Below, piece after piece: positions 1 to 7,045 of a DNA stretch of 7,045 bases. The translations under genes were made by a program, and so were the position numbers. The stretch is from a virus (Duplodnaviria > Heunggongvirae > Uroviricota > Caudoviricetes), in IMG/VR virus record IMGVR_UViG_2547132277_000003; one strand, written 5' to 3'. Each line of letters begins with the position of its first letter. Positions within the stretch are counted from its first letter, which is position 1. The notes under the pieces were generated by a model. It had not been told where the DNA came from. It ran no database searches and saw nothing but the letters and a program-made list of their open reading frames with translations.

Positions 1-852
1 TTCCTGCGTGAAGCGCTGTTCCGGTGTCTGCCTGAACTGGCGAAGTTCTCGCCTGTCAGCAACGTCAGCCATCCACTGCTCCAGTAGCTGGTTAACATGG
101 GCGAAGCTGTCGAACCGGCGGTACCGGATGAAGAAGTTTTCCTTGAGGTATTTCACCATCCGTTCAACCTTACCTTTGGTTCTGGCCCTTCGTGGACGGC
201 AGGCCCGTGGCAGGAAGCCATAGTGATCGGCCAGCAGCAGGAACCCGGAGTTGAACACCACCTTCCCGTTGTTATTTTTCAGCACTGCGGCTTTCTGGTT
301 ATCGACCAGCACGGTTTTCACGCTACCGCCGAAGTAGCGAAAGGCGCGGACCAGTGACTCATAGGTATGTTCAGCATCCTGCTTTGGTGCCGCGAAGACA
401 TGGAAGCGACGTGAGAACCCCAGCGTATTAACCGCGAAGTTAACCCTGCATCGTTGCCCGGCAACCTCAGCCTCAACTTCTCCCCAGTCATGCTGTAGCT
501 GGTAACCGGGCTGAGTTTCGAAGCGAACCGTTTTCTTCGATGGCCGCATCTTACGTTTGGGCTGGATGTAGTAGCGCAACATGGAACGGCCACCGGTATA
601 ACCCATCGCTTTGATTTCCGCCAGGATGACCTCGCCGTTCCAGACGTTCTCAGCCAGACGCATATCTATATAGTCCATGAACGGCTTGAGTTTGGCCATT
701 TTGTGGCGTGTTTTTCTGGCCGGAGGTTCCGGGTATTTCAGGTACCGTCTGACGGTCCGTTCAGAGCAACCAACCTGAGTGGCAATATCAACAATATACG
801 CACCTTGCTGGCGCATTTGCTTTATCATGTAAAAATCCTCTCTGCTCAGCAT
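1..852 (-). CDS. istA: IS21-family transposase IstA, N-terminal ~284 aa (C-terminus beyond window)
   Basis: Manual minus-strand translation from ATG (complement of 850-852) gives MLSREDFYMIKQMRQQGAYIVDIATQVGCSERTVRRYLKY..., an N-terminal HTH. Further in are ...GYQLQHDWGEVEAEV... (first Asp of the DDE core) and ...RPRRARTKGKVERMVKYLKENFF..., all typical of IstA. The frame stays open to position 1 (last residues read ...VADRRELRQFRQTPEQRFTQE). It is absent from the ORF track only because no stop lies in the window. Confidence 0.85.
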   Translation of the reverse strand, partial: MLSREDFYMIKQMRQQGAYIVDIATQVGCSERTVRRYLKYPEPPARKTRHKMAKLKPFMDYIDMRLAENVWNGEVILAEIKAMGYTGGRSMLRYYIQPKRKMRPSKKTVRFETQPGYQLQHDWGEVEAEVAGQRCRVNFAVNTLGFSRRFHVFAAPKQDAEHTYESLVRAFRYFGGSVKTVLVDNQKAAVLKNNNGKVVFNSGFLLLADHYGFLPRACRPRRARTKGKVERMVKYLKENFFIRYRRFDSFAHVNQLLEQWMADVADRRELRQFRQTPEQRFTQE

Positions 853-953
853 GAGTGTTCCCTTTGTGGTGTAGGAACCTTAAGGAAACAACATGTTGGG
901 TGGAGCGGACAATCCAAATGGTGAATTACTGTCTTATATCATTGGCGCTGACA
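1..953 (-). mobile_element. IS21-family insertion sequence, left end plus 5' part of istA (partial; continues beyond window start)
   Basis: Contains the istA 5' region. On the minus strand a TG-initiated putative terminus TGTCAGCGCC (plus 944-953) lies 101 bp upstream of the istA start, and a related copy TGTCCGCTCC (plus 903-912) sits 41 bp inside it, matching the multiple-terminal-repeat layout of IS21-family ends. Boundary placement is inferred, not verified. Confidence 0.55.
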
Positions 954-1251
954 AAAGGACGGTACCAGCCGGAAGCAAGGGTACAAACTGGTACCGCCAG
1001 GACTACACACAGCATAAAGTTGTGGTGCCGGGTGCCTCCCGGTGCCTGGCGAAGGTTGCACACCAGACGGGTGGGTATCCACAGAAGGTCGACTGTCAGC
1101 CTCAACCTTAACCCGCGTGCGCTGAGCCGCATTCACCACAACGCTAAGGATTCTCTTTGGTTGAAAATACTTAGCTGTTATGTGCCTGTCTTTTCACCAC
1201 TTCAGGCTCGGTGGTATCCTTTTAAGCCCGTATACATAAAAGGAAAATCAA

Positions 1252-1497
1252 ATGACTTTTGATGAAAAAGAACTTGATAATGCAATTAATAAAATCATCG
1301 TAACGTCGCTCTTTTCCTGTCTCAGCGACACTCAGCAGAAACAGTTCTACGAATCGGCTTTCAACATGATCGAGCGTTGTTGTTTCTGCGATGCCGACGA
1401 GTTACCTGAAAAAATCAGGAAACAGTTGGCTGATGCTCTTCGAGTGCGACTTTCTGACCAATTTTCTGAAATGTGCTCTCCGAATTTGGACAAATAG
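1252..1497 (+). CDS. hypothetical small protein (81 aa), AT-rich accessory-type gene
   Basis: ATG at 1252 preceded by AGGA (1241-1244) at 7 nt spacing. Codon usage is plausible and an AT-rich 8 bp hairpin (1507-1514 / 1525-1532) lies just after the TAG stop. No recognisable family. Its 3' end overlaps a convergent minus-strand ORF, so only one of the two may be real. Confidence 0.4.
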   Translation: MTFDEKELDNAINKIIVTSLFSCLSDTQQKQFYESAFNMIERCCFCDADELPEKIRKQLADALRVRLSDQFSEMCSPNLDK

Positions 1498-1690
1498 AAA
1501 AAGGCCATTTCCATTCAGGGTCTGATGGAAATACTTCAGCCTGTTCCAAAGCACGGCGTAAAGAGAACACAACTCCAGCCATAATCTGATGTTTCCCATT
1601 GGTCCAGCTATCGCCGCTCTGATCTACAGGGGCGGCTATGTCGTATGACCAAACGACTTCACAGTTATTGTTTAAAATCTGGACTTTCAT
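1415..1690 (-). CDS. hypothetical small protein (92 aa) in the PL-proximal position downstream of the repressor
   Basis: Start taken at the internal ATG (complement of 1688-1690) because it is preceded by GCAGGTG at 6 nt spacing; the ORF-track start at 1711 has no Shine-Dalgarno. It lies about 200 bp downstream (minus strand) of the OL-like operator pair. It is not Arg-rich, so not an obvious N-like antiterminator. It overlaps the 3' end of the plus-strand ORF 1252-1497 by 83 bp. Confidence 0.3.
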   Translation of the reverse strand: MKVQILNNNCEVVWSYDIAAPVDQSGDSWTNGKHQIMAGVVFSLRRALEQAEVFPSDPEWKWPFSICPNSESTFQKIGQKVALEEHQPTVS

Positions 1691-1897
1691 TTCATACACC
1701 TGCTTTAACATGAGTGCCTAGTGGCACAACATGACTCAACGAATCATCCTGGACTTCATATGCCCCAGGCGGCTACTTCGTGGGCGTCCTGCCTGTTCGT
1801 TTTTGACATTTACTGACTGCTTACGACACATGCACCGTGTTGCAACCAGATTTTGTTGTAATCCTGTAGTTGGTCTGGAACAAAAGATAAAATTAAA

Positions 1898-1934
1898 TTG
1901 CGAGACATGCAAATGATATTTGCGAGATATGCAA
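1898..1934. promoter_or_regulatory. OL-like operator pair: two 15-bp dyads TTGCGAGACATGCAA (1898-1912) and TTGCGAGATATGCAA (1920-1934)
   Basis: Near-identical direct repeats, each with inverted half-sites TTGCG / TGCAA, sharing the motif found in the repressor-cro intergenic region. A weak candidate leftward promoter overlaps them (minus-strand -35 TTGCAT at plus 1906-1911, -10 TATCTT at plus 1883-1888). Confidence 0.5.
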
Positions 1935-1946
1935 ATTTATAGGTAA

Positions 1947-1968
1947 TAAAAAGCCACCTTTCGGTGGC
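1947..1968 (-). terminator. intrinsic terminator downstream of the repressor gene
   Basis: Minus-strand RNA would form GCCACC-GAAA-GGTGGC (plus 1953-1968) followed by UUUUUA (plus 1947-1952), 21 bp after the repressor stop (1989-1991). There is no U-tract on the plus-strand side, so it is unidirectional. Confidence 0.65.
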
Positions 1969-1988
1969 CGATGGATGGGATATTGAGG

Positions 1989-2681
1989 TTAATTATGTCT
2001 CTTAAGGGTTTGCGACTGACTGATTAAGACCTTTCCAAAGACCATGAATCGGTGTTCGTTTTCGCTAGTAATTCCCCATTCACGGTAAATCTGGTTATCA
2101 GAAATCACCAGCAGTTTGTCAGGAATCATTTGAAGTCTTTTAACGTATATTTTGTCATCAAAACCAAAGACATATATACCATCACCATCAAACTGATTGA
2201 TGCTGACATCAACGAAGATGAGATCTCCGGGCTCAATGGTTGGACACATACTGTCCCCACGAACGTTGATAACTTTGATGTGATTGGCTGGTCGTCCGCC
2301 GAACATTGATACAGCATTATCAGTTCTGTATTCGATGGCATGAATCACATCAATGACATCACCGCCCTGGATAAGGCCATTTCCCGCACTGGCACTGATA
2401 TCCAGCATTTCAATACGGAACACATCCTTCACCTGCGCAACATCCTCATTATTACTGTTTTTATATACAGTATTACTTTTGTGGGCAGAGGTAAAGAGAT
2501 CAGCAATATCAACACCTAAGCTCTTGGCAATATTACTCAGTGTTTGTTCGGTAAATTGTTTTTGCTTACCCGTTTCTAAGCGCGAGATGTTCGCCGCATC
2601 TACTCCTATCGCTTCAGCGAGATCGGCGATTTTCATGTTCTTCGCTTGGCGAAGTTGTCTGACTCGGTTTCCTATGTTCAT
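1989..2681 (-). CDS. CI-type prophage repressor (N-terminal XRE-family HTH + C-terminal S24 LexA-like autopeptidase)
   Basis: 230 aa. N-terminus IGNRVRQLRQAKNMKIADLAEAIGVDAANISRLETGKQ is a classic HTH. The C-terminus carries the S24 signature GDSMCPTIEPGDLIFVD (Ser nucleophile) and IYVKRLQ (general-base Lys), with an Ala-Gly candidate cleavage site in DISASAGNG. The start has no Shine-Dalgarno and sits 6 nt after a -10-like hexamer. Confidence 0.9.
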   Translation of the reverse strand: MNIGNRVRQLRQAKNMKIADLAEAIGVDAANISRLETGKQKQFTEQTLSNIAKSLGVDIADLFTSAHKSNTVYKNSNNEDVAQVKDVFRIEMLDISASAGNGLIQGGDVIDVIHAIEYRTDNAVSMFGGRPANHIKVINVRGDSMCPTIEPGDLIFVDVSINQFDGDGIYVFGFDDKIYVKRLQMIPDKLLVISDNQIYREWGITSENEHRFMVFGKVLISQSQTLKRHN

Positions 2682-2778
2682 GCGTTTATTACATTTCTTT
2701 ATTGCGTGATAAGCAAATCAACTTGCGCAAAATAATTGCGTGAAATAACATGCATAACGCGCAATATTTGGAGGGCGT
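2682..2778. promoter_or_regulatory. divergent PRM/PR-like promoter-operator region between repressor and cro-like genes
   Basis: Candidate PR: -35 TTGCGC (2723-2728), 17 bp spacer, -10 TAACAT (2746-2751), then SD GGAGGG (2771-2776) before the cro-like ATG. Candidate PRM on the minus strand: -35 TTGCTT (plus 2711-2716), 17 bp spacer, -10 TGTAAT (plus 2688-2693), then 6 nt to the repressor ATG. Operator-like dyads: TTGCGTGATAAGCAA (2702-2716), the palindromic TTGCGCAA / CGCAA-N5-TTGCG cluster (2723-2740), and ATGCATAACGCGCAA (2749-2763). Confidence 0.6.
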
Positions 2779-3039
2779 ATGCAATCACCATTACGAAATG
2801 TGCGTAAGGCGCATGGTTTCACTTTGCAGCATGTTGCTGCGGGTGTTCAAGTCAATCCAGCGACGTTGAGTCGTATTGAGAGGCTGGAGCAGATTCCATC
2901 TATCGAGCTTGCAGAACGTTTAGCCAATTTTTTTAAGGGTGAAGTCAGCGAAATGCAGATTCTTTATCCGGCACGTTTTCAATCTAGCCAAAACCAGAAT
3001 GGGTTTAAACCACAGGAACAGGAGGTGAACCGTGGGTAA
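2779..3039 (+). CDS. Cro-like HTH transcriptional regulator (XRE family)
   Basis: 86 aa, divergent from the repressor, strong SD GGAGGG 3 nt... upstream of the ATG at 2779 (2771-2776). HTH segment GFTLQHVAAGVQVNPATLSRIERLEQ. Its 3' end overlaps the next gene by 8 bp. Confidence 0.8.
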   Translation: MQSPLRNVRKAHGFTLQHVAAGVQVNPATLSRIERLEQIPSIELAERLANFFKGEVSEMQILYPARFQSSQNQNGFKPQEQEVNRG

Positions 3040-3583
3040 GCATCACTGGAAAGTAGAAAAACAGCCTGAGTGGTACGTGAAAGCTGTCAGAAAAACTATC
3101 GCAGCGTTGCCGGGGGGGTACGCTGAAGCTGCTGACTGGCTGGATGTAACAGAGAACGCATTATTTAACCGCCTTCGTGCCGATGGCGATCAGATTTTCC
3201 CGCTGGGATGGGCAATGATTTTGCAACGTGCTGGTGGAACTCACTTCATTGCTGACGCTGTGGCGCAGTCTGCAAATGGCGTCTTTGTGTCTCTTCCTGA
3301 TGTCGAGGATGTGGACAACGCCGATATCAACCAACGCCTGCTGGAGGTCATTGAACAGATCGGCAGTTATTCAAAACAGATTCGTTCAGCAATCGAAGAC
3401 GGTGTAGTGGAACCGCATGAGAAAACTGCAATTAACGACGAGCTATATCTCTCAATTTCGAAGCTGCAGGAGCATGCAGCACTGGTCTACAAAATCTTTT
3501 GCATTTCAGAAAGTAATGACGCCCGCGAGTGTGCAGCTCCGGGCGCCGTGGCGTGTCGTGACTGTGGAGAAACTAACGCATGA
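3032..3583 (+). CDS. phage CII-like regulatory protein (CP76-type, ~183 aa)
   Basis: GTG start at 3032 preceded by AGGAGGT (3019-3025). Position immediately after cro and its size fit the enterobacterial prophage CII-like (CP76) family. The family call is from memory of that family and is not verified; the C-terminus has a Cys cluster [13 protein letters not shown]. Confidence 0.65.
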
Positions 3584-3918
3584 ACAGTTTAACAACACAC
3601 TACCGTCGCTCGCAACTGATTGCGCTTCCTGTACCGGGTGGAAAAGCGAAGGTGGAGTATTGCTATGCAGTAAATGTACCAGGTGACAGGGAAATTGTAA
3701 CCCACAGCTTTGCAGAGTGGGCTGTGGGTGATTTCAACCGGCAGAAGGAGACAGTCCTTTGCGACAAGTTAACCGCTGGTTCAAAGATCACTACGGAGTG
3801 CCCGTCAGAGTCATTCGTTGGGAACCGGAAACACAACGGGTTATCTACCTCCGCGAAGGCTATGAGCATGAGTGCTTCAGTCCGCTCGAACAGTTTCGTC
3901 GTAAATTCAGGGAAATAG
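3580..3918 (+). CDS. hypothetical protein (112 aa); frame is uncertain in its 3' half
   Basis: ATG at 3580 overlaps the CII-like stop (ATGA) and has GGAG 9-10 nt upstream. The N-terminal ~57 codons look protein-like, but the 3' half ([48 protein letters not shown]) is Ser/Thr-rich and reads like an out-of-frame translation. Confidence 0.3.
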
Positions 3919-3938
3919 AGGTCGGTCATGAGCACTAA
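3759..3938 (+). CDS. hypothetical small protein (59 aa, TTG start), alternative frame to the 3' half of 3580-3918
   Basis: Manual translation in the third frame: (M)[58 protein letters not shown]. Balanced, aromatic- and charge-rich composition. A perfect SD AAGGAG (3745-3750) lies 8 nt before TTG at 3759. Missed by the ORF track, probably because of its short length. Confidence 0.35.
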
Positions 3939-4869
3939 ATTAACCGGCTATGTATGGGATGGTTGCGCAGCGTCAGGCATGAAATTATCCAGCGTGGCAA
4001 TTATGGCCCGCCTGGCTGATTTCAGTAATGACGAAGGTGTGTGCTGGCCATCAATTGAAACCATTGCCCGTCAGATTGGCGCGGGGATGAGTACCGTCAG
4101 AACGGCTATCGCACGGCTGGAAGCAGAAGGCTGGTTAACGCGTAAGGCGCGTCGCCAGGGTAACCGCAATGCGTCGAATGTTTATCAGCTTAACGTTGCG
4201 AAGCTTCAGGCAGCGGCATTTTCTCAACTGTCAGATTCTGACCCGTCAAAATCTGACGCATCAAAATCTGACCCGTCAAAATTTGATGCGTCGAAATCTG
4301 GCAAAAAAGCGGGTTTTCACCCGTCAGAATCTGGCGGGGATCCGTCAGTAAAATCAAAACATGATCCGTCAGATAAAAAAACTTCTCGTCCGGACGCTTC
4401 GCAACCGGACACGCAGACGGCTGAACAGGAGTTTTTAACTCGCCATCCTGATGCGGTTGTATTCAGCCCTAAAAAGCGCCAGTGGGGAACGCAGGATGAT
4501 TTGACCTGCGCACAGTGGCTCTGGAAAAAAATCATCGCCCTGTACGAGCAGGCCGCCGAATGTGACGGCGAGGTGGTTCGTCCCAAAGAACCGAACTGGA
4601 CAGCCTGGGCAAACGAAATTCGCCTGATGTGTGTGCAGGATGGTCGTACTCATAAACAAATCTGCGAGATGTACAGCCGCGTCAGTCGCGATCCGTTCTG
4701 GTGCCGTAACGTGCTCAGCCCGTCGAAGCTGCGGGAAAAATGGGATGAGCTTTCCCTGCGCTTATCGCCGTCCGTCAGCACGTACACCGAAAAACGCGAA
4801 GACCCGTACTTCAAAGCCAGTTACGACAACGTGGACTACAGCCAGATCCCGGCAGGATTCAGGGGGTGA
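3928..4869 (+). CDS. phage replication initiation protein, O-like (N-terminal winged-HTH domain, iteron-encoded linker, C-terminal domain)
   Basis: 313 aa, SD GAGGT (3918-3922) 5 nt before the ATG. N-terminus VWDGCAASGMKLSSVAIMARLADFSNDEGVCWPSIETIARQIGAGMSTVRTAIARLEAEGWL resembles the HTH of prophage replication initiators. The central low-complexity linker (SDSDPSKSDASKSDPSKFDASKS...) is encoded by tandem DNA repeats, as in lambda O where the origin lies inside the gene. Confidence 0.8.
   Translation: MSTKLTGYVWDGCAASGMKLSSVAIMARLADFSNDEGVCWPSIETIARQIGAGMSTVRTAIARLEAEGWLTRKARRQGNRNASNVYQLNVAKLQAAAFSQLSDSDPSKSDASKSDPSKFDASKSGKKAGFHPSESGGDPSVKSKHDPSDKKTSRPDASQPDTQTAEQEFLTRHPDAVVFSPKKRQWGTQDDLTCAQWLWKKIIALYEQAAECDGEVVRPKEPNWTAWANEIRLMCVQDGRTHKQICEMYSRVSRDPFWCRNVLSPSKLREKWDELSLRLSPSVSTYTEKREDPYFKASYDNVDYSQIPAGFRG
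4228..4380. repeat. iteron-like tandem repeats (putative phage replication origin) inside the O-like gene
   Basis: Five contiguous 15-bp units at 4228-4302 (cTGTCAGATTCTGAC, CCGTCAAAATCTGAC, GCATCAAAATCTGAC, CCGTCAAAATTTGAT, GCGTCGAAATCTGGC), then further CCGTCAG-initiated copies at 4321, 4342 and 4366. Each unit has internal dyad symmetry (GTCAGA / TCTGAC). A moderately A-rich stretch (4343-4381) follows. Confidence 0.6.
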
Positions 4870-4871
4870 GC

Positions 4872-5360
4872 ATGAGTCTTTTGAATGACGTTCAGAAATT
4901 CATTGAAGCCCATCCGGGCTGTACTTCCGGAGATATTGCGGATGCTTTTGCCGGTTACTCACGGCAGCGCGTTCTGCAGTCAGCAAGCAAGTTACGTCAG
5001 AGTGGGCGTGTGGCTCACCGTTGTGAAGGAGATACACGCAGACATTTCCCGCGCCTGACTGAGAGAGCGCAGGAACCGGAACCACAACCAGTTCGTGAAA
5101 CCAGACCTGTGCGCAATTTCTATGTCGGCACTAACGATCCCCGTGTGATTTTGTGCCTGACCCGCCAGGCGGAAGAACTGGAGTCCAGGGGCTTATACCG
5201 TCGTGCTGCAACCGTGTGGATGGCGGCATTCCGTGAAAGCCACTCCCAGCCAGAACGAAACAATTTTCTGACGCGTCGTGAGCGGTGCTTACGGAAAAGC
5301 AGCAAGCGCGCTGCATCGGGTGAAGAGTGGTATCTGTCAGGGAATTACGTGGGGGCTTAA
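4872..5360 (+). CDS. PerC-family (Pch-like) transcriptional regulator with an N-terminal winged-helix-like extension
   Basis: ATG at 4872 preceded by AGGGGG (4861-4866); an alternative GTG at 4866 overlaps the upstream stop. The C-terminal half contains ...AEELESRGLYRRAATVWMAAF...RRERCLRK..., matching the signature I associate with PerC/Pch activators. Family call is from memory and not verified. Confidence 0.55.
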   Translation: MSLLNDVQKFIEAHPGCTSGDIADAFAGYSRQRVLQSASKLRQSGRVAHRCEGDTRRHFPRLTERAQEPEPQPVRETRPVRNFYVGTNDPRVILCLTRQAEELESRGLYRRAATVWMAAFRESHSQPERNNFLTRRERCLRKSSKRAASGEEWYLSGNYVGA

Positions 5361-6013
5361 TGAGTAATAAATATTGCCAGGCGCTGGTGGAACTGCGGAA
5401 CAAACCAGCCCATGAACTGAAGGAAGTGGGCGATCAGTGGCGCACGCCGGACAACATTTTCTGGGGAATTAACACCCTGTTTGGCCCGTTTGTTCTGGAT
5501 CTGTTCACTGACGGTGATAACGCCAAATGTGCCGCGTATTACACGGCGGAAGACAACGCGCTGGCGCATGACTGGTCAGAACGTCTTGCGGAGCTTAAAG
5601 GTGCTGCCTTTGGTAATCCCCCATACAGCCGCGCCAGTCAGCATGAGGGGCAATACATCACCGGCATGCGTTACATCATGAAACATGCCAGTGCCATGCG
5701 TGATAAGGGCGGGCGCTATGTTTTCCTGATCAAAGCTGCCACCAGCGAAGTGTGGTGGCCGGAAGATGCAGATCATATTGCTTTTATTCGCGGGCGTATT
5801 GGTTTTGAACTGCCTGTCTGGTTTATCCCGAAAGACGAGAAGCAGGTACCGACAGGAGCTTTTTTCGCTGGTGCTATTGCTGTTTTTGACAAGACCTGGA
5901 AGGGACCGGCAATCAGCTACATCGGGCGCGATGAACTTGAGGCATGTGGTGAGGCGTTTCTGGCGCAGGTTCGCCAGCAGGCGGAAAAACTGGTCAGGGA
6001 GATGGCGGCATGA
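5360..6013 (+). CDS. phage-type DNA N6-adenine methyltransferase (Dam family), orphan with no adjacent restriction gene
   Basis: Catalytic motif IV AAFGNPPYSR is present, with upstream DQWRTPDNIF and VLDLFTDGDNAKCAAYYTAEDNAL typical of phage Dam-type enzymes. Start chosen at ATG 5360 (TAATG overlap with the upstream stop); an in-frame GTG at 5327 is an alternative. Confidence 0.85.
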   Translation: MSNKYCQALVELRNKPAHELKEVGDQWRTPDNIFWGINTLFGPFVLDLFTDGDNAKCAAYYTAEDNALAHDWSERLAELKGAAFGNPPYSRASQHEGQYITGMRYIMKHASAMRDKGGRYVFLIKAATSEVWWPEDADHIAFIRGRIGFELPVWFIPKDEKQVPTGAFFAGAIAVFDKTWKGPAISYIGRDELEACGEAFLAQVRQQAEKLVREMAA

Positions 6014-6336
6014 CGACGTTAACTCAATGCCAGCAGCAGGTGCTGGATATGCTGATTTCTTATCAGAAAGAACGTGGCTTCCCGCCAACCAATCAGGAGG
6101 TGGCAACCATGCTGGGATACCGTTCGGTGAATGCAGCGGTGGAGCATCTTCGCGCACTGGAGAAAAAAGGCGTCATCACGATAAAGCGTGGCGTGGCCCG
6201 GGGGATAACGCTTCATACCGCGGTGAAGGACGACGACAGCGAGGCGGTCGGGATTATCCGCGCACTGCTTGCCGGTGAGGAAAACGCAAGGCTGCGTGCA
6301 ACCCACTGGTTACATGAGAGGGACCTGAAAGTATGA
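6010..6336 (+). CDS. LexA-like DNA-binding-domain-only protein (winged HTH, no S24 peptidase domain)
   Basis: 108 aa. LTQCQQQVLDMLISYQKERGFPPTNQEVATMLGYRSVNAAVEHLRALEKKGVITIKRGVARGITL parallels the LexA N-terminal domain (LTARQQEVFDLI...[36 protein letters not shown]...) but the protein ends about 35 residues later with no Ser/Lys dyad. ATGA overlap with the Dam stop. Confidence 0.75.
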   Translation: MTTLTQCQQQVLDMLISYQKERGFPPTNQEVATMLGYRSVNAAVEHLRALEKKGVITIKRGVARGITLHTAVKDDDSEAVGIIRALLAGEENARLRATHWLHERDLKV

Positions 6337-6614
6337 AGCTGATCCTGCCTTTTCCGCCCAGCGTGAACACGTACTGGCGACACCCCAACAAAGGGGCGTT
6401 TGCTGGTAAGAGCCTGATAAGCGCGGCGGGGCGAAAATTCCAGAGCGCGGCGTGCGCAGCAATAGTTGAGCAGTTACGTCGTCTGCCGAAACCAACGTCG
6501 GCACCTGCTTCAGTGGAGATCGTGTTGTTTCCTCCGGATAGACGGGATGGAAAACCGCCGCCATCGCCTGAACTGGGAAATGAGCCGGGACAGGTGTTTG
6601 CGGCTTGGCAGTAA
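6333..6614 (+). pseudogene. rusA: RusA-family Holliday-junction resolvase, C-terminally disrupted (catalytic Asp region missing)
   Basis: N-terminus MKLILPFPPSVNTYWRHPNKG matches the RusA signature (E. coli RusA LPWPPSNNRYYRHNRG). Similarity continues through ...VEIVLFPPDRR, but the expected RRDLDN...K...D catalytic segment is replaced by DGKPPPSPELGNEPGQVFAAWQ-stop. No alternative frame in 6538-6660 restores it. ATGA overlap with the upstream gene. Confidence 0.55.
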
Positions 6615-6650
6615 CCGGCTCATTTAAACCGTCTGGTCTGTTTCCTCCGG
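6526..6650. repeat. 12-bp exact direct repeat TGTTTCCTCCGG (6526-6537 and 6639-6650) flanking ~101 bp at the rusA breakpoint
   Basis: Seen directly in the sequence. The first copy lies within rusA codons just before homology is lost; the second lies 44 bp upstream of the right-hand transposase start. Confidence 0.6.
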
Positions 6651-6693
6651 CTCTACAAAAATAATGTCCATCATTTTTAATGGACACTATCGT

Positions 6694-7045
6694 ATGAAAC
6701 ACCGGACCTGGATCACTGAAGCTTTACGTCTTCACTTTGAAGAACATTTACCCCGGGTTGTGGCCGGGCGTCGCCTGGGTGTACCAAAATCAACAGTTTG
6801 TAGTATGTTCGTGCGCTTTCGGAGAGCTGGCCTTTCGTGGCCTTTGCCCGCAGGCATGTCGGAGCAGGAACTTGATGCCTGCCTTTACGGACAATTTTCC
6901 ACGATACCAGTCGTACGTCCTGAAAGCACCGTTATATCCGAAGCCCCCGTGGTAAAAAAACGTCCCCGGCGGCCCAACTTCCCTTATGAGTTTAAAATCG
7001 CCTTAGTGGAGCAGTCACTGCAGCCCGGAGCCTGTGTGGCGCAGA
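6694..7045 (+). CDS. IS transposase, N-terminal part with two HTH regions (family uncertain, IS3-family OrfA-like; partial, runs off window end)
   Basis: Manual translation from ATG 6694: MKHRTWITEALRLHFEEHLPRVVAGRRLGVPKSTVCSMFVRFRRAGLSWPLPAGMSEQELDACLYGQFSTIPVVRPESTVISEAPVVKKRPRRPNFPYEFKIALVEQSLQPGACVAQ..., no stop before the window end. The second HTH resembles IS2-type OrfA ([25 protein letters not shown]). It differs from the left-hand IstA, so the two flanking elements are different. Confidence 0.6.
   Translation, partial: MKHRTWITEALRLHFEEHLPRVVAGRRLGVPKSTVCSMFVRFRRAGLSWPLPAGMSEQELDACLYGQFSTIPVVRPESTVISEAPVVKKRPRRPNFPYEFKIALVEQSLQPGACVAQ

Follow-up and report, generated by a model that had tools for sequence, protein, structure and literature searches.

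We examined a 7,045 nucleotide stretch of viral DNA (IMG/VR record IMGVR_UViG_2547132277_000003; referred to as the window, at its full length) together with the bacterial chromosome that carries it. The window very probably represents the immunity region, the replication region and the left nin-type region of a defective lambdoid myophage of the SfII/SfV type, integrated at thrW next to proA in an O6:H16 lineage of enterotoxigenic Escherichia coli (ETEC), which later received two independent insertion sequence (IS) elements; nothing was found that contradicts this assignment. The window was identical at 7044 of 7045 bases to positions 1031723–1038767 (reverse strand) of NZ_CP024232.1, the chromosome of E. 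coli O6:H16 ETEC strain 2014EL-1346-6 (the source strain), and strain B2C gave an equally good match. The sole mismatch to NZ_CP024232.1, at window position 760, falls in the istA gene of the left element, ISEc62, where the window translation is still without a stop. For the analysis of context the window was extended by 20 kb on each side; in the resulting 47-kb locus (L001) it occupies 20001–27045.

Reading L001 from the left, proB, proA and tRNA-Thr (thrW) are followed by a tyrosine integrase gene (minus strand), a helix-turn-helix (HTH)/excisionase-like gene and the early-left genes yfdT, yfdR, yfdQ and yfdP; then come ISEc62 (istB and istA, minus strand), cI (minus strand), cro, ymfL, the DUF4222 gene, an O-like gene, yfdN/PerC, the Dam gene, a LexA-family gene and a partial rusA. 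To the right of rusA lie a piece of a second integrase gene (int2), an IS66-family element, ISCro1 (tnpA, tnpB, tnpC), the remainder of the N-terminally deleted int2 and an inverted copy of the attachment site (att); the far right holds a small open reading frame (ORF), Avs2 (minus strand), pinE, tail-fibre fragments, a second pinE, GIY-YIG and AraC genes, a transposase remnant, attR, a LysR remnant and paoD. The block between the two ISs (954–6610, 5657 bp) holds early-region functions only by domain and profile searches, in agreement with the initial annotation of the window. That annotation had also reported no integrase in the window, which was incorrect: 6541–6610 is a piece of int2, and the integrase and excisionase that belong to the prophage itself, with attL (thrW), are located 5 kb leftward of the window.

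From thrW to attR (L001 14.6–41.5 kb), no Q, lysis (holin), terminase, head/capsid or tail genes were found, apart from the fibre fragments. The prophage is integrated at att and has truncated genes (rusA and int2) at its breakpoints; it is called defective because no late genes lie between thrW and the pao genes in the source strain, and it is predicted to be unable to lyse cells, package DNA or make particles. Beyond this, only the far right end of a prophage survives, 11–21 kb to the right of the window, consisting of cargo genes, attR and a fibre segment invertible by pin. The earlier proposal of a cryptic, rearranged prophage thus stood, the missing late genes being present in a collinear relative. 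The case that had been named as refuting it, i.e., a complete collinear prophage with the ISs as simple single insertions, was half borne out, in that each IS did prove to be a simple single insertion whereas the prophage is incomplete.

The collinear relative is the full-length thrW prophage of ETEC H10407/SEC470 (NZ_CP007594.1, about 297.4–336.9 kb), which has the same integration site, the same int and 99.3% identity over the block. It shares with the source genome the protein accessions of CI (WP_001020634.1), Cro, YmfL, Dam and the LexA DNA-binding-domain (DBD) protein, whereas those of the O-like protein and PerC differ; its right-end cargo (pinE, GIY-YIG, AraC, rve') is 98% identical in the source strain. 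The H10407 prophage keeps an intact rusA, KilA-N, DUF968, Q, holin, endolysin and spanins, followed by genes for terminase, portal, an HK97-type head and a contractile tail, and then by a pin-invertible fibre segment, GIY-YIG and AraC; of these, the genes from KilA-N to the contractile tail are missing from the source prophage, and the H10407 module is without any IS.

The viable Shigella phage SfII (KC736978) showed 98.5% DNA identity to window 953–6540 and was collinear with it, with the identical order cI, cro, cII, O, PerC, dam, LexA-DBD, rusA. SfI, SfII, SfV, SfX and P22 are reported to have one common att core in thrW (PMC3636060); SfII and the SfI/SfV group, which are thrW-integrating serotype-converting lambdoid myophages, share this core with the source prophage and have a related int/xis. 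The source prophage differs from SfII in that everything beyond rusA codon 69 is missing, the gtr serotype-conversion cassette is absent next to int, and about 430 bp to the left of cI (L001 21219–21648 = window 1219–1648) are not common to the two. The RefSeq gene names yfdN and yfdP–yfdT derive from cryptic prophages of E. coli K-12 (CPS-53/KpLE1). CPS-53/KpLE1 is considered a decayed relative, with yfdN (PerC), fragments of Dam and O, and yfdP–T, and CP4-6 occupies the same thrW–pao interval; CPS-53 has a different integration site (argW), and the breakpoints would also differ from those of the source prophage.

The right edge of the block is a fusion of rusA to int2. Disruption of rusA at this edge had been reported, and its truncation (the rusA sequence ends at 6540) was confirmed; the gene is not cut by the IS, being fused to int2 instead. 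A three-way nucleotide alignment of the window, intact rusA (H10407, SfII) and an intact copy of the integrase placed the switch at 6540|6541, with rusA identity running through 6540 and integrase identity beginning at 6539, i.e., the TA at 6539–6540 is shared as a 2 bp microhomology. A junction at 6548|6549, obtained by megablast, was corrected by this alignment, the extra 8 bases being a chance extension; the RusA profile match covers residues 1–72 only. The int2 remnant corresponds to residues 105–384 of a 384-aa integrase with 99% identity; it is inverted and N-terminally (5') deleted, and ISCro1 sits 70 bp inside it. The intact counterpart lies beside tRNA-Thr in strain XH992, within a P22/lambda-like prophage that has cIII, kil, a Rad52-like gene, ssb and an anti-RecBCD gene as well.

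An IS66-family element lying only 70 bp from the rusA breakpoint, with the rusA ORF reading through to it, might itself have removed the late genes, whether through an IS-mediated deletion of neighbouring DNA or through recombination of one IS copy with another, and would then mark the endpoint of the rusA deletion. This is extremely unlikely, since strain FDAARGOS_1077 has the identical rusA'/'int2 junction without an IS66 element or any other IS nearby, and with a single copy of the 8-bp target. Further, the 8-bp duplication on either side of ISCro1 in the source strain is perfect and would not have survived an IS-mediated deletion, and the true junction shows the microhomology described above. 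IS66-mediated deletion of the late genes was therefore rejected because the junction exists without the IS; the truncation of rusA is an illegitimate recombination that predates both ISs.

The junction was found in 16 of 5426 complete E. coli genomes, always at 100% identity, and every other rusA match stopped at the junction. One carrier has the junction only, 13 have it with ISCro1, and two have it with both ISCro1 and ISEc62 (i.e., ISCro1 is at the junction in 15 of the 16 carriers). The order of events was rusA/int2 fusion, then ISCro1, then ISEc62, as shown by the stepwise states and the empty sites in the sister genomes. The junction and the two insertions can be used as lineage markers, being present in 16, 15 and 2 of the 5426 complete genomes, respectively. 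In NZ_CM180512.1 (strain E1316), the int2-att-Avs2 junction was present and the rusA'/'int2 junction was not listed; this locus was probably further rearranged or deleted.

The right element, ISCro1, is 2699 bp when complete (L001 26611–29309), with terminal repeats GTAACCGGCTCATTTAAACCGT and GTAAGCGACTCGTCAGAACCGT and an 8-bp target-site duplication, GCTTGGCA (window 6603–6610). It has the tnpA-tnpB-tnpC genes, GTAA… terminal repeats and 8-bp duplication of the IS66 family; window 6664–7044 encodes the start of an IS66-type TnpA, which scored 155.7 bits against NCBIfam NF038385 (cut-off 150). The element boundaries were confirmed by full-length 2699-bp matches elsewhere, and the empty site was found in FDAARGOS_1077 (locus L004), where the single target copy at L004 23610–23617 corresponds to the sequence duplicated in L001. 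A perfect GTAAGCG left end was looked for and none was found; from the empty site and the full-length matches, the left end is an imperfect repeat, GTAACCGG…, at 6611.

The left element, ISEc62, is 2125 bp when complete (L001 18829–20953; ends TGTCA…TGACA) and has the features of the IS21 family, i.e., IstA with HTH and DDE/rve regions followed by the IstB ATPase, TG…CA ends, and a duplication within the 4–8 bp of that family. Window 1–852 (minus strand) encodes 284 residues of IstA (NCBIfam transpos_IS21, 267 bits; cut-off 160) and also matches Pfam rve; ISEc62 is the RefSeq name for the element. The target-site duplication AAAG, whose second copy is at L001 18825–18828, reads as 5 bp (AAAAG) if the ambiguous A at base 953 is counted. 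The empty site was seen in the sister genome LR883050 (locus L002), 99.9% identical on both sides, where L002 12001–12005 is the sequence duplicated around the IS in L001; the FDAARGOS_1077 locus served as a further empty-site reference for this boundary. Identical copies of the ISs had been suggested as something to look for elsewhere, and full-length ISEc62 copies at 100% identity were indeed found in the source strain, at 6 places in the chromosome and 2 in plasmids; ISEc62 is therefore currently active in this strain. Both ISs are ordinary copies (ISEc62 100% and ISCro1 99.9% identical to annotated copies) with family-typical ends and duplications, and no difference from those copies was noted.

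It had been suggested that the IS pair could mobilise the block as a composite unit. Two unrelated transposase genes do bracket the block, as was reported, and this geometry, with an IS at each end and both reading outwards, is all that speaks for a composite transposon able to move the 5.6-kb regulatory block. We consider this vanishingly unlikely. The elements have unrelated terminal repeats (IS21-family ISEc62, IstA/IstB, TGTCA…; IS66-family ISCro1, TnpA/B/C, GTAA(C/G)CG…); each has its own duplication on both sides (AAAG and GCTTGGCA, respectively), and the direct repeats at the outer IS ends that were to be looked for are not there, the outer flanks AAAG and GCTTGGCA having no match to each other. 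Sister genomes carry one IS or neither at the same locus, both ISs occur together in only 2 of 5426 genomes, each time at thrW, and neither a plasmid record nor any other locus was found with the block plus the junction or the IS pair. None of the hallmarks of a composite transposon was found, i.e., one IS type or shared ends, a single outer duplication, and more than one genomic location. A transposase acts on its own ends, and since neither the IS21 nor the IS66 transposase uses the ends of the other, joint movement of the block by the two elements is precluded. IS families, duplications, empty sites and distribution all led to rejection of the composite transposon; the locus shows that flanking ISs do not in themselves turn a block into a transposon.

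Table 1. Features of the window and att copies of the surrounding locus (window coordinates, except where L001 is given; a dot marks a feature without strand).
Feature	Position	Strand	Basis and remarks
ISEc62, left inverted repeat (IRL) part	1-953	-	Terminal repeat (…TGACA, ending at 953); 1-852 is the beginning of istA (852 nt)
STnc100/PasD-like structured RNA, early-left region	954-1164 (Rfam match 949-1164)	-	Sub-threshold Rfam RF02076
ISEc62 target-site duplication AAAG	954-957	.	
Small ORF	1252-1497	+	phrog_3311, E 1e-56 (PHROGs)
Small ORF	1415-1711	-	phrog_3195, E 6e-70 (PHROGs)
Putative leftward operator (OL)	1898-1934	.	Two exact copies of the motif TTGCGNGANANGCAA (1898-1912 and 1920-1934), left of the cI terminator
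Hairpin resembling an intrinsic terminator, immediately beyond cI	1952-1969	-	
CI repressor, 230 aa	1989-2681	-	HTH_3 and Peptidase_S24 self-cleavage domain (Pfam); WP_001020634.1
Putative rightward operator (OR), between cI and cro	2702-2764	.	Motif exact at 2702-2716; 2 mismatches at 2750-2764 (-)
Cro-like HTH repressor, 86 aa	2779-3039	+	Pfam; counterpart annotated cro in SfII
CII-like activator (YmfL, Phage_CP76)	3032-3583	+	Pfam, PHROGs
112-aa ORF	3580-3918	+	phrog_1170; annotated in SfII
DUF4222 ORF, 59 aa	3759-3938	+	Annotated in RefSeq
O-like replication initiator, 313 aa	3928-4869	+	phrog_391, E 1.6e-135
PerC-family regulator (YfdN), 164 aa	4866-5360	+	Pfam, PHROGs
Phage N6-adenine DNA methyltransferase (Dam, PF05869)	5360-6013	+	Pfam E 1e-45
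LexA DNA-binding-domain-only protein, 108 aa	6010-6336	+	No S24 domain
Truncated rusA	6333-6540	+	Codons 1-69 of 129 kept; region after codon 71 lost
Internal piece of second, P22-type thrW integrase (int2, from about residue 105)	6541-6610	+	Continues after ISCro1 at L001 29310-30087
ISCro1, left end	6611-7045	+	IRL GTAACCGGCTCATTTAAACCGT (6611-6632) and first 127 codons of tnpA (from 6664)
thrW att core	L001 14661-14724		Reference copy (thrW)
Inverted att copy	L001 30084-30147		100% identical; just after int2
Direct att copy	L001 41389-41451		94%; before LysR remnant

The immunity region has the lambdoid layout of an S24-type CI, a divergent Cro, and repeated, putative operators at OR and OL (Table 1). 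A GDSM motif and an Ala-Gly site were read by eye from the CI translation. The 15-bp motif TTGCGNGANANGCAA (12 specified bases) has 3 exact copies in the whole window, all within the two regions that flank cI; a RecA-cleavable CI and a divergent Cro that flank this motif would form the usual immunity switch. Since cI is intact and has the same protein accession as in the complete H10407 prophage, the remnant would be expected to still give repressor immunity to homoimmune phages.

Rightward, the replication module is of the lambdoid kind, with an O-like initiator that has iterons in its own gene. The iterons have a 15-bp period, with about 4–6 copies at 4231–4305 and more out to 4377, and the origin is likely to lie at these iterons, inside the O-like gene; a separate P-like loader gene is absent from the block, as it is from SfII. 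Upstream, the 112-aa and DUF4222 ORFs overlap in different frames (3580–3938). The match of phrog_20047, whose members are 63 aa long, is confined to residues 1–63 of the 112-aa ORF, which suggests that this ORF is a read-through extension of a short gene.

Every ORF from cI to the LexA-DBD gene is intact, int, xis and both att ends persist, and CI, Cro, YmfL, Dam and the LexA-DBD protein (not the O-like protein and PerC) have the protein accessions of the complete H10407 prophage; the remnant could be a domesticated module, which selection retains because cI gives superinfection immunity and because PerC-like, Dam and LexA-DBD act in host regulation, and not a decaying prophage. We regard this as unlikely. 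Over the block there is no difference among the 16 carriers; this points to a clonal lineage of recent origin, in which intactness is no signal of selection. Insertions within the module also go on: in addition to ISEc62 here, FDAARGOS_1077 has IS100 (IS21 family) inside the O-like replication gene (L004 19728–21655), and IS3-family insertions are present in related O157 prophage modules; the module is a recurrent IS target. Special retention of a regulatory cargo, as had been proposed, was likewise not upheld, the gene set being simply the standard order of intact SfII-type phages. The decaying prophage remains the preferred reading, and every element in it is of a known kind. Its significance is small beyond bookkeeping, other than as a clean worked example of prophage decay in an ETEC lineage through a proposed tandem thrW lysogeny and rearrangement, microhomology deletion and sequential ISs.

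Larger rearrangements were evident to the right of the window. Both int2 and its att copy are inverted relative to thrW, and 11.2 kb of DNA (with Avs2, the two pinE copies, fibre fragments, GIY-YIG and AraC) lie between 241-bp inverted repeats (L001 30033–30273 and 41263–41501) that contain thrW att cores. This segment is inverted in FDAARGOS_1077 (L004 24333–35801) compared to the other 15 genomes (L001 30033–41501). Single nucleotide polymorphisms within the repeats placed the crossover in an 84-bp identical stretch that includes the att core, and the inversion is compatible with either Int-mediated or homologous recombination. Within it, the tail-fibre segment between the two inverted pinE copies (94.5% identical) is in opposite orientations in otherwise near-identical genomes (L001 35472–38534 and L002 26520–29582); this is a Pin-type or homologous inversion within the prophage remnant. 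Avs2, an AVAST type 2 anti-phage gene (L001 30531–34985, minus strand), is 3.5 kb to the right of the window beside the inverted att copy; in ST131 (locus L008) the cargo of a lambdoid prophage ends with this gene, which there adjoins attR and an integrase remnant.

The finding of the 11.2-kb segment in opposite orientation in FDAARGOS_1077 and the other 15 genomes, with its crossover in the att-core stretch, could be read to mean that the intact Int/Xis and the three att copies drive programmed flips of the Avs2 segment and that, once CI has been cleaved in an SOS response, the O gene and the retained origin support replication in situ, which amplifies the neighbouring Avs2. We think this very doubtful; if true, the thrW island would not be inert debris.

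A history that would account for the locus as a decayed prophage begins with two prophages in tandem at thrW; an inversion through their pin-invertible fibre segments would then have placed int2 in inverse orientation, and a deletion at the 2 bp microhomology would have removed everything from rusA to int2. We put the chance of this three-step model at about even. After the fusion ISCro1 entered first, 70 bp inside the int2 remnant with its 8-bp duplication, and then ISEc62, recently, into the U-tract of a terminator of the early-left region with a 4–5-bp duplication. Three considerations limit the overall reading given here: the operators are putative, their assignment depending on the position of the motif only; the order of the large rearrangements can be polarised only with a phylogeny of the 16 genomes; and the same junction would also result from one inversion that broke within rusA and int2, with deletions thereafter.

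ISEc62 is located in the early-left region, between cI and the yfdP-int genes; from the position of OL, the leftward promoter pL may also lie in this region, and ISEc62 could then affect the early-left transcript. The DNA at its insertion site resembled the STnc100 RNA family (Rfam RF02076), for which the full-length model scored the window stretch at 36.5 bits and the uninterrupted L002 copy (11997–12212, minus strand) at 39.5 bits, both short of the gathering score of 47 bits; membership was not assigned, and the match should be taken as a resemblance and a lead only. The stretch has a fold z-score of -2.2, a strong terminator and the conserved core UGGUGAAU…CACCGGGAGGCACCCGGCACCA, and the ISEc62 target is exactly the terminator U-tract of this putative RNA, the AAAAG duplication reading CUUUU on the RNA strand. 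RefSeq labels the same stretch as a frameshifted hypothetical protein. STnc100 has been linked to the prophage small RNA PasD in a 2026 preprint (10.64898/2026.05.13.724894). The Rfam scan of the window gave only this sub-threshold match and a spurious microRNA match on the iterons.

The Pfam searches gave zero matches for the small ORFs at 926–1139, the chimeric ORF of rusA and the incomplete TnpA; TnpA and RusA were then resolved by NCBIfam and PHROGs. No Pfam family was found for the phrog_3311 and phrog_3195 ORFs; these two ORFs (1252–1711) are convergent, overlap by 83 bp and are located between OL and the STnc100-like RNA.

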